64,000 nt of DNA from a virus. Numbering within the stretch: the stretch's first letter is position 1; each line of letters starts with the position of its first letter. Made by a program: the position numbers and the translations under genes. The stretch lies in the IMG/VR virus record IMGVR_UViG_3300042881_004673, positions 1 through 64,000 of that record. One strand, 5' to 3'. Shown piece by piece: positions 36,328 to 39,918 of the stretch. Under the pieces are notes generated by a model. That model saw nothing but the letters and a program-made list of their open reading frames with translations, was not told the origin of the DNA and ran no database searches.

Positions 36328-36761
36328 TGAAAGAGTTAATTAGACACATATTAAAAGAAGAAGAAAATGAAAACCTAAAAGAAAGGTTTGTTAGATCCGC
36401 CCAATCCATTCCTTATATTATCCAAAGTAATGTAGATTCAAATCTTTTTACAGAAATTGAAATTGGAAGTATTAATTATAATAACAATCATAACAGCATT
36501 GATGGTGAATTGTTAATAACATCTTGGTGTGATGATCCTGACCTTTTTTCGTTTACAAACCAACTGAAATTAGTTGATAAAGAATTGGACACAGTTTTAC
36601 TTAATTATTCATTTACAAGTAACGGTTCTTTTGGGAAAAAGAAAGGTAAATATAATAACTTGATGTGTTGGTTTATTGGTTGTGAATGGAGTGCTGAAGG
36701 TGATTATACAATGAAGATGAAATACCATTTTACGCAAGAAGAATATGATGATGGTGAATAA
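36327..36761 (+). CDS. Leader-bearing hypothetical protein
   Basis: MKELIRHILKEE; TAATG coupling. Confidence 0.75.
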   Translation: MKELIRHILKEEENENLKERFVRSAQSIPYIIQSNVDSNLFTEIEIGSINYNNNHNSIDGELLITSWCDDPDLFSFTNQLKLVDKELDTVLLNYSFTSNGSFGKKKGKYNNLMCWFIGCEWSAEGDYTMKMKYHFTQEEYDDGE

Positions 36762-39700
36762 AGATTTAATTAGACATATCTTAAAAGAGGAAACTCGTGA
36801 CACCAAATCAAAACTAATTAAACAAATTGAAGATGAGGGGTTGTATTCTATTGCTGAATTAGTTGGGGGATTAGACAACCTAAAGAAGATACTAAAAGAT
36901 AACCCCGAAATGGTTGAAAGAATTGAAAACCAAAAAGGGTTAGTTAAAGTGTCTTGGACAACGGATGGAGACGATCCATCAATTGATTTGCCATTTAAAA
37001 TTATTGGTGCAGGGTGGAATATATGGATGACTAATAGTTGGCCAATAGTTAATATTATTTATAATGAAAATAAATTAACTAAAGATGAGAATTATAAATT
37101 TAAAGATTTTTTATATGATTCTTTTAATGATGAAAGTTCGGTAAGAGTTCTTAAACTTAATAGTGATGAACCTAGAATGCATAAAACCTATGTTCAGTTA
37201 GGGGAAATAAATGGGAAAACTGCACAAAAAAATACAACCGATTTAAGTCGCAGTTATGATCTGTCTGATATTCGGGAAATAGTAGAAACGTTAGGATATG
37301 ATAATATTATTAAAGAGGAGGTAGATAACACTAAAGAAATTCAAAAAAATTTAAGAACAATTAAGATATTGTTATCTCAAATTAGTTGGGAAGGACTTTG
37401 TGATATATGGGTAGAATATAATCCTGTTGATAAGGATTATGAAATCAGATCCAAGTCAATAAAAAGACATTTTGATCATGACGAAATTGTTAATGAATTA
37501 AATTTTGTGGAAGAATCAATAAAAGCTATGGGTCTCAGACCTTATGTATTTTCACCATGGCATGTTGATAATTGTGAGGATGAGGTTGAGTTTATGAACG
37601 AAAGTATAGATAAAAGTGATGAGAAAAGAAACAAGATCATAGAAAAAATTATGGACAACATTATTTTTCCTGAATATAAACATATCATTTGTGGTTATGA
37701 TGTAAAAAATGATGAGGTTTTTAATGAACCTGTAGTTAATGTTACTTTTATTGGTGGGTATGGAACAAAACTTTGGCCTACCACACAAGGAATTCAAAAA
37801 ATGTATAGTGATGTTTTAGATGAAATTTGGAATACTATTTACGATTACATTAATATTCCAGTTGGCGTTACTATGGAAACAACGCCCAAATGTGATGAAC
37901 AAGAAAACATTTATCTTAGAGAATCAATTGGCAAATCTGAAAATAATAAACTTAAGTTGGTTAAAGATATTATATATACCATGTTTGATAATATTATAGA
38001 TTTAGAATACATCGCCAAAAGAAATGAGATTATGGTTTACTATGATACACAAGAAGAGTTAGAGAGTTCAGAAATATGTGATACTATAAATGATTATACC
38101 AATTTAAATGTTGTTCCTTGGTATGACTACAAGAAACGAACAGAATTAAAAAAGGACCCTGATTTTTACATAGATACTGAAAGATATGAGGAAGAACTTA
38201 ATGAAAATTATAGCCCTGCTGGTAAAGAAATAATTCCAAACGAAATTGTTATACATAAATCTAATCCTAAGTTCAGAGACAAGATTATAGAACAAGGATT
38301 AAAAGTTCGTGCTGGTGAATGTTATAAAATATATGCAGGATATGGAACAAAATGTAAACCTGCAATATTTGCAACCAACTCAACAAATAAGAGATCGTGG
38401 TTTGATTCTACTTATGATGATGATGTTTGGGAAATTGATACAACAATGATGCCCGAAATCAAATGGTATAAGGATAGACACTACGAATCAAGTAAAAAAC
38501 ATATAGTAACCTTTCAAGACATACCTAAAGAGGCAATCAAACTTATCTATGAAGGTTCAGGTAAAGATGGGGGAATAATGGAATCAGTTGACAAATCTGA
38601 AGACAAAAAACTTAAGTTGGTTACAAAAATGATTCATGAGTTTTTTGATGATGTTAGTTTTATTGATATTAAAAAATATGAAAATAAACCAATGATAAGA
38701 GTTTATTTTGATAACGATGAATATGCTGGTAATGAAGAGACTTATTTTGCTGAACAAATACAAGATAAAATATATGAATATACAGGTATTAAACTTATTC
38801 CGTATTGGCACAATATTCAGTATAACACTGATGCAGATTTTCGTTTAGATGCCATTAAACTAAAATACGATAATGAAGGAAATGTTATAAATGAATCTGA
38901 AGAAAAACAACCAAAGTATGTTAATATAATTAAAAATCTTATAGAACCATTTAAAGAAGAAGAAGATTGTGTTTGCGAAATTAGAGTAACATCCGAAGAC
39001 GATTTTTATATTATTTATTTGGTATTTGGAACGGAAGAACTAAATGATAAATTTTCTAGTTTTCTTCAAAGAGCTGAATATACAATAAATTTAAGAAATG
39101 ATGTTAAAAACACAATTAAAGATTATTTGCCAATAGATAATATATATGTTGGATCCATATCAAAACCAAATTGCGAATGGAAACCCATGAATGAATCTAC
39201 ATTCTTTCTTAGAAGGGTTGATACGAGTTTAATGGAAAAAGAGTTCTTTGAGAATTTAAATATTATTACCGATGTTTATTTAGATAAATATAATAATGGT
39301 GTGGGTTTTAATTTTGAAACCTTTGAAGATCATGCCATAAATTATTTTATAGATAATTATTACAATGATTTAACTAATTACGGAGAAAATGATTACCCGT
39401 ATGATGAGATTTATAAATTCCTTTCAAATCATTTTCATAATAAGATTAAAGATAAATACGACACTTTTTTTGGTCGTAATATAAATGAATCAGAAAATAA
39501 AAAACAATCCTTATTAAAGACAATAGAAAAGGAAGGGTTATATAATTTTATAGAAATGTCTGGATTAGACATTAGTCAAATTAGTTCGGTTTTAAAAAAC
39601 ATGGATAACCCTAAAGAAGTATTAAAACAATATATCAGGGATTTTGTTTTAAAACATGGTAATAAATGGGGAGATAATAGTGGAACACTTAGTGGATATG

Positions 39701-39918
39701 AAATCCAATTAAGTGATAACAAATATGTTGACGATATAACGGTTCAAGACAGCGACCAAATTGCTGTTGAGATATTGGAATTTGATCAAGACGAGTATGG
39801 ACATACTGAACAAAACGACCAATACATAACAACTATTAACAACCTAACTAATGATGAGTTATTAACTATTATTTCTTGGATGATGGAAACAATTAAAAAT
39901 GGTGATTGGAATAGATAA
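36745..39918 (+). CDS. Leader-bearing nine-module polyprotein-like protein including an ART-like module
   Basis: NKDLIRHILKEE leader; eight internal [ILM]xE linkers; duplicated modules. Confidence 0.8.
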   Translation: MMMVNKDLIRHILKEETRDTKSKLIKQIEDEGLYSIAELVGGLDNLKKILKDNPEMVERIENQKGLVKVSWTTDGDDPSIDLPFKIIGAGWNIWMTNSWPIVNIIYNENKLTKDENYKFKDFLYDSFNDESSVRVLKLNSDEPRMHKTYVQLGEINGKTAQKNTTDLSRSYDLSDIREIVETLGYDNIIKEEVDNTKEIQKNLRTIKILLSQISWEGLCDIWVEYNPVDKDYEIRSKSIKRHFDHDEIVNELNFVEESIKAMGLRPYVFSPWHVDNCEDEVEFMNESIDKSDEKRNKIIEKIMDNIIFPEYKHIICGYDVKNDEVFNEPVVNVTFIGGYGTKLWPTTQGIQKMYSDVLDEIWNTIYDYINIPVGVTMETTPKCDEQENIYLRESIGKSENNKLKLVKDIIYTMFDNIIDLEYIAKRNEIMVYYDTQEELESSEICDTINDYTNLNVVPWYDYKKRTELKKDPDFYIDTERYEEELNENYSPAGKEIIPNEIVIHKSNPKFRDKIIEQGLKVRAGECYKIYAGYGTKCKPAIFATNSTNKRSWFDSTYDDDVWEIDTTMMPEIKWYKDRHYESSKKHIVTFQDIPKEAIKLIYEGSGKDGGIMESVDKSEDKKLKLVTKMIHEFFDDVSFIDIKKYENKPMIRVYFDNDEYAGNEETYFAEQIQDKIYEYTGIKLIPYWHNIQYNTDADFRLDAIKLKYDNEGNVINESEEKQPKYVNIIKNLIEPFKEEEDCVCEIRVTSEDDFYIIYLVFGTEELNDKFSSFLQRAEYTINLRNDVKNTIKDYLPIDNIYVGSISKPNCEWKPMNESTFFLRRVDTSLMEKEFFENLNIITDVYLDKYNNGVGFNFETFEDHAINYFIDNYYNDLTNYGENDYPYDEIYKFLSNHFHNKIKDKYDTFFGRNINESENKKQSLLKTIEKEGLYNFIEMSGLDISQISSVLKNMDNPKEVLKQYIRDFVLKHGNKWGDNSGTLSGYEIQLSDNKYVDDITVQDSDQIAVEILEFDQDEYGHTEQNDQYITTINNLTNDELLTIISWMMETIKNGDWNR

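Follow-up and report, generated by a model that had tools for sequence, protein, structure and literature searches.

All internal head proteins of phage T4 use a short N-terminal capsid-targeting sequence that is removed by the head protease gp21 (PMC5694885; PMC3012670), an enzyme that cuts C-terminal to Glu, e.g., at ITE-6 and LTE-619 of Alt, a protein that undergoes a second, C-terminal cleavage as well (PMC5694885). Polyvalent proteins (Iyer, Burroughs, Anand, de Souza and Aravind, 2017, PMC5512222) carry 2–15 unrelated domains in strongly variable architectures, are predicted to accompany the DNA into the host, and have been proposed to release their domains by proteolysis. A further comparison is offered by the phiKZ-like giant phages, in which a protease related to the gp21 type (gp175 of phiKZ, gp245 of SPN3US) cuts after Glu at a three-residue motif (S/A/G-x-E) and many ejection proteins are packaged, some of them substrates with multiple sites. 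In SPN3US, apart from the protease's own self-cleaved propeptide, all identified gp245 cleavages yield N-terminal propeptides, with extra sites lying inside propeptides (PMC10052503). Here we analyze a 64,000-nucleotide stretch of viral DNA (the window; positions 1 to 64,000 of IMG/VR record IMGVR_UViG_3300042881_004673), in which the open reading frame (ORF) 36745-39918 (+) encodes a chain of 1057 amino acids and 122 kDa. In our judgment this protein is probably a capsid-targeted polyprotein that the head protease would cut into nine internal or ejection proteins of ~11–20 kDa. The window belongs to an 80,391-bp record, from an uncultured giant phage resembling T4, that is rated 28% complete, which implies a genome of ~290 kb; its GC content is 30%.

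The chain combines the themes of T4 internal proteins and of polyvalent proteins. Like IPI, IPII, IPIII, and Alt of T4 it has a short N-terminal tag ending in (L/I)-x-E, and, as with the T4 internal proteins, its cargos are small, diverse, and fast-evolving and lie in a variable locus. The T4 combination of gp21-type protease, gp22-like scaffold, and gp23-type capsid protein is found in the relative G001 (see below) and is extrapolated from there to this phage, and Alt, which is packaged and processed, has the same ADP-ribosyltransferase (ART) fold as module 5. However, T4 has one cargo per gene, whereas the 1057-residue protein has nine behind a single tag, with internal sites; the modules also appear unrelated to IPI–III, and while packaging and cutting are established for T4, we infer capsid targeting, cleavage, head retention, and injection of the modules from sequence and by analogy. 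With polyvalent proteins the chain shares the variable arrays of unrelated domains, the proposed delivery and release, the presence of an ART domain, frequent in those proteins (PMC5512222), and in some relatives an attached HExxH domain, putatively a peptidase. The differences are that the release of polyvalent domains is ascribed mainly to embedded zincin-like or assemblin-like peptidases, whereas the chain has a predicted site for a trans-acting T4-type head protease at every joint together with a T4-style leader, and that its modules are much smaller (~100 residues) and mostly without a known fold family. As for the phiKZ-like phages, their motif has a small P3 residue while the joints described here have an aliphatic P3, as in T4, and a chain of several mature cargos has not been reported from them. 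We found no description of mature-cargo chains joined by head-protease sites in the published literature searched, and the remark of a previous sequence-only reading of this DNA, that multi-cargo polyproteins are unusual in tailed phages, holds for that literature.

That reading had proposed eight [ILM]-x-E linkers within the ORF, and all of them were found at the expected nucleotide positions in a frame that is stop-free on translation (Table 1). They delimit nine modules behind a leader that closes with ILKE15↓E (the arrow marks the proposed cut, after the P1 residue). The extended motif [ILM]-x-E-S occurs at six sites in the protein, and all six are proposed joints, against about one expected from composition (an estimate based on ~1 per 1000 residues computed for leader-tagged ORFs). 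Module 9 is the only module lacking a C-terminal x-E site. The density of [LIM]-N-E-S in leader-tagged ORFs is 13 times that in untagged ones in the contig, and six times in G001. Scans of the whole protein against Pfam and PHROG gave sub-threshold noise only and no family, and tblastn against 50,697 GenBank phage records gave no match. An assembly chimera was considered and rejected, the 90% cluster of the protein having 21 member sequences from 13 contigs.

The division into modules is also seen in the structure predicted by AlphaFold2, run on the full-length chain with an alignment of 75 relatives (predicted template modeling score, pTM, 0.28). Stretches with a predicted local distance difference test (pLDDT) below 50, namely residues 1–17, 188–196, 279–290, 385–397, 482–511, 606–617, 716–722, 812–826, and 910–916, cover the leader and all eight joints. 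Since these low-confidence stretches coincide with the joints, and since module 5 folds alone (see below), no domain runs across a linker, which is the outcome that the sequence-only reading had anticipated. The remaining stretches below 50 comprise most of module 5 (in the whole-chain run), the C-terminal tail, and a small number of short internal loops. Modules 2, 3, 4, 6, and 7 have an alpha-beta-beta-alpha-beta layout in this model (in module 2, helices 195–211 and 246–261 and strands 218–226, 231–238, and 266–268), and in both module 1 and module 9 a beta domain follows the helices, module 9 being the best-predicted part of the full-length model (pLDDT ~80). When the whole-chain model was compared with the PDB by Foldseek, the best rows were tandem ring-building-motif (RBM) or BON proteins (YscD, PrgH, DolP, and BonA; E 2e-3 to 3e-2), whose domains share this topology, but as weak matches from a multidomain query, with the ribosomal protein eS7 also among the weak rows (E at least 2e-3); against the BFVD viral models there was no interpretable match. 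Our guess from the models is that the five alpha-beta-beta-alpha-beta modules might be binders or inhibitors.

Several modules resemble each other in sequence. Modules 4 and 6, previously described as duplicates, are indeed paralogous (33% identity over 94 residues, E 2e-10), with 76% identity between the first 76 nt of module 4 and the beginning of module 6, and the sequence shared by modules 1 and 9 was recovered in their N-terminal helices (39% over 44 residues, E 1e-4; hhalign 50%). Module 3 has weak profile similarity to modules 6, 4, and 7 (hhalign 77, 58, and 48%, respectively), within a marginal mutual similarity of modules 2, 3, 4, 6, and 7 (33–77%); the module alignments behind these comparisons hold 26–179 distinct sequences each. 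The suggestion that module 8 exists also as a stand-alone gene at 42665 stood only in part; the match to ORF 42665-42994 is collinear, and module 8 is leader-proximal in relatives, but the similarity is weak (23% over 93 residues, pairwise E 3e-5) and was not recovered by genome-wide BLAST at 1e-3.

A word-index search for relatives retrieved 265 proteins of 581–1085 residues and 694 shorter ones, and the modules were mapped on 240 listed proteins, in which module matches begin and end at joints. Correspondingly, 53% of the internal endpoints of BLAST high-scoring segment pairs fall six residues or less from a joint, compared with 11% expected. Among the 194 relatives with an N-terminal leader there are 61 architectures of 2–9 modules each, with orders such as 4-5-2-3-6-7-9, 8-4-5-6, 6-7-9, 8-9, 5-2-7-3, and others. 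Module number and order thus vary, in contrast to the fixed order that would have refuted the sequence-only reading, although the order is not free: in leader-bearing relatives module 1 invariably opens the chain and module 9 invariably closes it, and module 4 almost without exception has module 5 directly after it. At least 10 further module families, absent from the 1057-residue protein, occur in the relatives (at least 18 across the whole family); most of these start with S, and the non-terminal ones end in [LIM]-x-E. Fused forms longer than 1850 residues were also searched for and none was found, an absence that the search tool itself counts as weak evidence.

Modules 1, 3, 4, 5, 6, and 8 are each found directly behind the leader in some relative, module 4 in 46 of them, module 6 in 33 (MTLQESIKKILRE↓SVDKSEEKKLKLV...), and module 3 in P0141, while module 2 is placed variably (e.g., after module 5) and module 8 is missing from most relatives and leader-proximal in others. 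The first residue of a module is constant in either context, as seen by comparing ..KILRE↓SVDKSEEKKLKLV behind a leader with ..GGIME↓SVDKSEDKKLKLV behind another module. Module 7 (start SEEKQPKYLN) can have any of at least eight different module ends before it, among them ..GNVINE, ..HFDRDINE, ..SLKNDLME, ..KENIYLRE, and ..KCDDQLNE, and because each of them ends in [LIM]-x-E, each module appears to bring its own C-terminal site. Fission and fusion take place at the same points. In G001, modules 1, 3–7, and 9 are split over three adjacent genes, each of them leader-tagged (Table 1), and BLAST found no counterpart of modules 2 and 8. Judging by sequence, some joints are visibly former leaders: the DNA of the junction between modules 1 and 2 (37303-37328) matches a leader end (34929-34954) at 81% identity, and P0190 retains a complete internal leader, MNIQENIRRILME.

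Over 184 distinct junctions of relatives, P3 is L, I, or M in 144, Glu occupies P1 in 147, and Ser occupies P1' in 119, giving the consensus [LIM]-[NMRK]-E↓S. Many of the seeming exceptions are displaced by a few residues, with L-R-E↓S slightly upstream, and the P3 residue at a given module end varies conservatively among M, L, and I. Leaders close in the same way. The contig has at least 19 ORFs that begin with one of two shared leader types, type A (M..LIRHILKE↓E or MNLQENIRRILKE↓E) and type B (MKRIIRLTE↓SDLTRIVKRVI-x-E↓), both closing in [ILV]-x-E; the leader type of the polyprotein also opens ORFs 34911, 35552, 36004, 36327, 39965, and 42665, and eight neighboring genes carry it. Protein-level differences among leaders are conservative (R/K and I/L/V swaps), and the leaders are conserved at the DNA level as well, adjoining repeated upstream DNA. 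A Sec or type IX secretion signal was rejected for them, as they are charged amphipathic helices without the hydrophobic character of a signal peptide. The consensus of T4 gp21 is L/I-x-E, and both the joints and the leader ends match its cutting rule.

A head module of the T4 type was found in the relative G001 (IMGVR_UViG_3300034117_001582; 291,867 bp, 99% complete), which shares 72 of 119 crude ORFs with the contig at a median identity of 66%. It encodes a T4 gp21-type prohead protease of 236 residues (154799-155509 (-); Peptidase_S77, E 5.5e-26, above cut-off) with ELNHP and GVSSRG motifs, a gp22-like scaffold protein (L024 1925-3172 (-)) with a long run of acidic (EMYEEDD) repeats and many [ILV]-x-E-S motifs, and a Gp23-family capsid protein (E 3.6e-64), the three genes being adjacent and in the T4 order 21-22-23. 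In the capsid protein, HLINE↓AAST lies 19 residues before a conserved IVRRV block, a weak hint that it may be a maturation site.

In the mechanism that we propose, the 15-residue amphipathic leader (..DLIRHILKE↓E) would act like a T4 capsid-targeting sequence, so that the 122-kDa chain enters the prohead's scaffold core. After shell assembly, a gp21-type serine protease would cut after Glu at [L/I/M]-x-E↓(S/E/N), at all nine sites, removing the leader and releasing nine proteins of 94–176 residues, which would remain in the head and be delivered to the host along with the DNA. T4 IPI*–IPIII* fall within the same size range. The joint would serve also as the breakpoint of module exchange, giving rise to different kits in the relatives. 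A broader and more tentative idea, about which we are divided and lean slightly to the side of doubt, is that the [L/I/M]-x-E↓S joint works as a plug with two uses, protease site and recombination breakpoint at once, by which any small protein acquiring a joint could be spliced into the chain and co-loaded in equimolar amounts, making a combinatorial and quickly re-sorted kit of injected effectors in giant T4-like phages whose hosts would be lake bacteria of the Bacteroidota type.

The former leaders visible at some joints could also be understood in another way, if the protein were an uncut polyvalent protein, working and perhaps also packaged as a single polypeptide, with domains as beads on flexible linkers and joints that are just scars of repeated fusion between leader-tagged genes and act as recombination microhomology. 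The remnant at the first joint, the whole internal leaders of P0190 and of G001 (YLKE↓SIRKVLKEE), and the precedent of the N4 virion RNA polymerase, a polyvalent protein packaged unprocessed (PMC5512222), all favor it. Nevertheless, functionless scars should decay, yet the P1 Glu and the aliphatic P3 are kept across many module pairs while the flanks vary, and most joints consist of three or four conserved residues that are not leader-like (GNVINE↓S, CEWKPMNE↓S). It also has to accommodate that the terminal module alone is without the C-terminal motif, and that single-module tagged genes have no [LIM]-x-E-S beyond residue 32. On balance we think an uncut chain unlikely. Cutting by a different protease, either the downstream HExxH protein or one of the host, inside the head or after injection, is very improbable in our view, as the joint motif is common to the leader ends of ~20 unrelated genes and to the T4 gp21 rule, and most chains, the 1057-residue protein included, have no HExxH domain in cis. 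What speaks for it is the leader-tagged HExxH gene itself, the fusion of its domain to the chain C-terminus (in G001, through YLKE↓SIRKVLKEE, and in 10 or more of the proteins sampled), and the finding that zincin-like metallopeptidases are the commonest hub domain of polyvalent proteins and are predicted to autoprocess (PMC5512222). The HExxH protein has no Pfam or PHROG match, and a language model gave a lead to ImmA/IrrE, U49, and M78 metallopeptidases with a score (0.87) below the trust level of the tool.

The leader might also be something other than a capsid address, such as a tag that directs proteins elsewhere or into another assembly, or a 5' coding element for translation control or recombination, with modules that act late in the cytoplasm, cut or uncut. 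Its conservation at the DNA level next to repeated upstream DNA would fit, as would the tagged cargos without an obvious need of packaging (the VanY-type peptidase and DUF2237). However, the conservative protein-level variation indicates selection on the peptide, leaders of two unrelated types all end in [ILV]-x-E, the same motif separates the modules, and the relative G001 has the T4 set of protease, scaffold, and capsid genes; moreover, an ART and a peptidoglycan peptidase carried in the virion are functions typical of ejection proteins. We regard a leader of this kind as quite improbable. The capsid-targeted and head-protease-cut polyprotein, which we prefer, has its own difficulties. The likeness of the leader to that of T4 is one of position and closing motif, with no evident relation in sequence, and the head module is taken from G001, the window's own record (28% complete) having no protease or capsid gene. 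The alignment of the G001 capsid protein with T4 gp23 is ambiguous N-terminally, and places T4 GSFLTE under GSFET and not under LINE↓A. Bare [ILMV]-x-E is frequent, with 29 sites in the 1057-residue protein, and is not discriminating, and at two of the eight joints P1' is E (IKE191) or N (LNE487) instead of S. The constraints on order (module 1 first, module 9 last, module 4 before module 5) could fit some modules acting jointly in an uncut chain. Finally, a TATTTAT motif, examined as a late-promoter link of leader-tagged genes to head genes, does not discriminate in a genome of such low GC, lying upstream of 9 of 19 tagged vs. 30 of 100 untagged ORFs in the contig, and of 9 of 28 vs. 74 of 314 in G001.

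Folded alone with 45 family members, module 5 gave a model with pLDDT 91.8 and pTM 0.85, in which only the last six residues (DGGIME) are uncertain. Foldseek matched it to KptA/Tpt1 (E 8e-5, probability 1.00), and a VIA search (an all-against-representatives structural comparison) to KptA (Z 9.9, rmsd 2.9 Å over 93 residues, KptA residues 74–180) and mouse Tpt1 (Z 9.1), most of the further rows being ART enzymes or toxins (Scabin, PltA, TreX, pertussis S1, and DarT; Z 5–7). A profile search against PDB sequences returned only Tpt1/KptA, marginally (E 0.13), and the language-model neighbor cluster, with 16% PARP annotation, agrees with an ART fold; a Pfam scan of the 45 family members gave no hit (DUF5820 with E 0.003, below cut-off). 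By its model, module 5 is an ART-fold domain nearest to the NAD lobe of Tpt1/KptA. It is like these enzymes in the ART-type NAD-binding C-lobe and unlike them in the N-terminal RNA lobe, its 126 residues matching the 74–180 segment of KptA only, and as this lobe is missing we file it as an ART-fold domain and not as a Tpt1. In Tpt1 the N-terminal RNA-binding lobe carries most of the catalytic Arg-His-Arg-Arg tetrad. The family-invariant residues of module 5 are H17, R24, I27, D73, and D90. The family comprises 339 clusters, stand-alone genes of 105–150 residues formed by a leader plus module 5 are common, and this is the most conserved module, with ~75–100% identity in relatives. A domain of the same type (44% identity) is found at residues 1800–1907 of P0376, a polyvalent-type protein of 2925 residues from a compositionally different, non-AT-rich source, which shows, as far as its sequence goes, that the module 5-type domain travels among polyvalent-type proteins far outside this phage group.

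Should loading and cutting of the chain proceed as proposed, the T4 internal-protein model, in which each cargo has its own tag, would be extended to many cargos behind a single tag, offering a simple route to pack and evolve multi-effector kits in which the protease site is the exchangeable module boundary. A large share of the genes of unknown function in giant T4-like phages would then be virion-delivered anti-defense or takeover factors acting in the first seconds of infection, and the leader plus the [LIM]-x-E↓S joints would provide a sequence rule for searching metagenomes and would suggest a design taken from nature by which several foreign proteins could be loaded into T4-type capsids. 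Without any cutting, the protein family is still a clean and quantifiable case of domain shuffling at defined joints.

Table 1. Features of the polyprotein and of its neighbors in the window, and architecture of the corresponding G001 genes (joint positions are nucleotide positions in the window).
Feature	Position	Strand	Description
Leader of polyprotein	36745..36789	+	Residues 1-15, MMMVNKDLIRHILKE↓E, putative capsid-targeting propeptide closing in I-L-K-E
Module 1	36790..37317	+	Residues 16-191, four helices then beta domain, end IKE191
Module 2	37318..37602	+	Residues 192-286, alpha-beta-beta-alpha-beta, end MNE286
Module 3	37603..37923	+	Residues 287-393, alpha-beta-beta-alpha-beta, end LRE393
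Module 4	37924..38205	+	Residues 394-487, module 6 paralog, end LNE487
Module 5	38206..38583	+	Residues 488-613, ADP-ribosyltransferase-fold domain, end IME613
Module 6	38584..38895	+	Residues 614-717, alpha-beta-beta-alpha-beta, end INE717
Module 7	38896..39195	+	Residues 718-817, end MNE817
Module 8	39196..39489	+	Residues 818-915, all-helical (STFFLRRV...), end INE915
Module 9	39490..39918	+	Residues 916-1057 plus stop codon, four helices then beta domain
Joint of modules 1/2	37309		IKE191↓E
Joint of modules 2/3	37594		MNE286↓S
Joint of modules 3/4	37915		LRE393↓S
Joint of modules 4/5	38197		LNE487↓N
Joint of modules 5/6	38575		IME613↓S
Joint of modules 6/7	38887		INE717↓S
Joint of modules 7/8	39187		MNE817↓S
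Joint of modules 8/9	39481		INE915↓S
Degenerate-leader gene	42147-42668	+	Type-A-like leader MNLQENIQRIRSMMG without final Glu; cargo start ..GTPLYHKTSTETGIKIINSDSL
DUF2237 gene	33566-34042	+	Type-A leader MNLQESIRRILREE; PF09996, E 2.5e-38
Terminator-like hairpin with T run	34858-34882		Followed by TATTTATAATAAT directly before 34911
Four single-module upstream genes	34911..36761	+	Polyprotein-type leader; overlap or abut each other and the polyprotein gene
HExxH gene	39965..40561	+	198 residues, leader-tagged, FHETAHQ motif (IIFHETAHQYQF), directly downstream of polyprotein
Cyanophycin-synthetase N-domain ORF	40603-41520	+	305 residues, PF18921 E 1.7e-44, without own N-terminal leader
Second-leader genes	44825-51929	+	At least 10 genes, longer leader MKRIIRLTESDLTRIVKRVI-x-E
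VanY-type gene	47910-48533	+	Type-B leader KKIIRLTENDLYRIVRQVISE and D-Ala-D-Ala carboxypeptidase domain PF02557, E 4.3e-10
G001 gene a			Leader, module 1-like module, LNE↓S, module 1
G001 gene b			Leader, module 4, module 5, module 3, YLKE↓SIRKVLKEE, HExxH domain (separate gene 39965 in the window)
G001 gene c			Leader, module 6, module 7, module 9

In the ORF with the cyanophycin-synthetase N-domain, PF18921 is followed by an internal leader, NLKESIRRILREE, and then by a module that G001 encodes as a leader-tagged gene of its own (L005 12600-13055). The longer leader of the second group of genes has two candidate sites, L-T-E↓S at residues 7–9 and [IV]-x-E at ~22, and most of the cargos behind it belong to no known family; the VanY-type product may be a virion-borne peptidoglycan peptidase, judging by its domain and leader. 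At the cargo start of the degenerate-leader gene, GTPLYHKTSTETGIKIINSDSL looks like another ART-type H motif.

The polyprotein is the fifth gene in a tight type-A run (34911-39918), and from their arrangement it and the four genes upstream probably form one operon. After the terminator-like hairpin, directly 5' of the first ATG of this leader-A operon, lies GGTATTTATAATAAT (within 34858-34910), which from its sequence and position may be a late-type promoter giving a near-leaderless mRNA.

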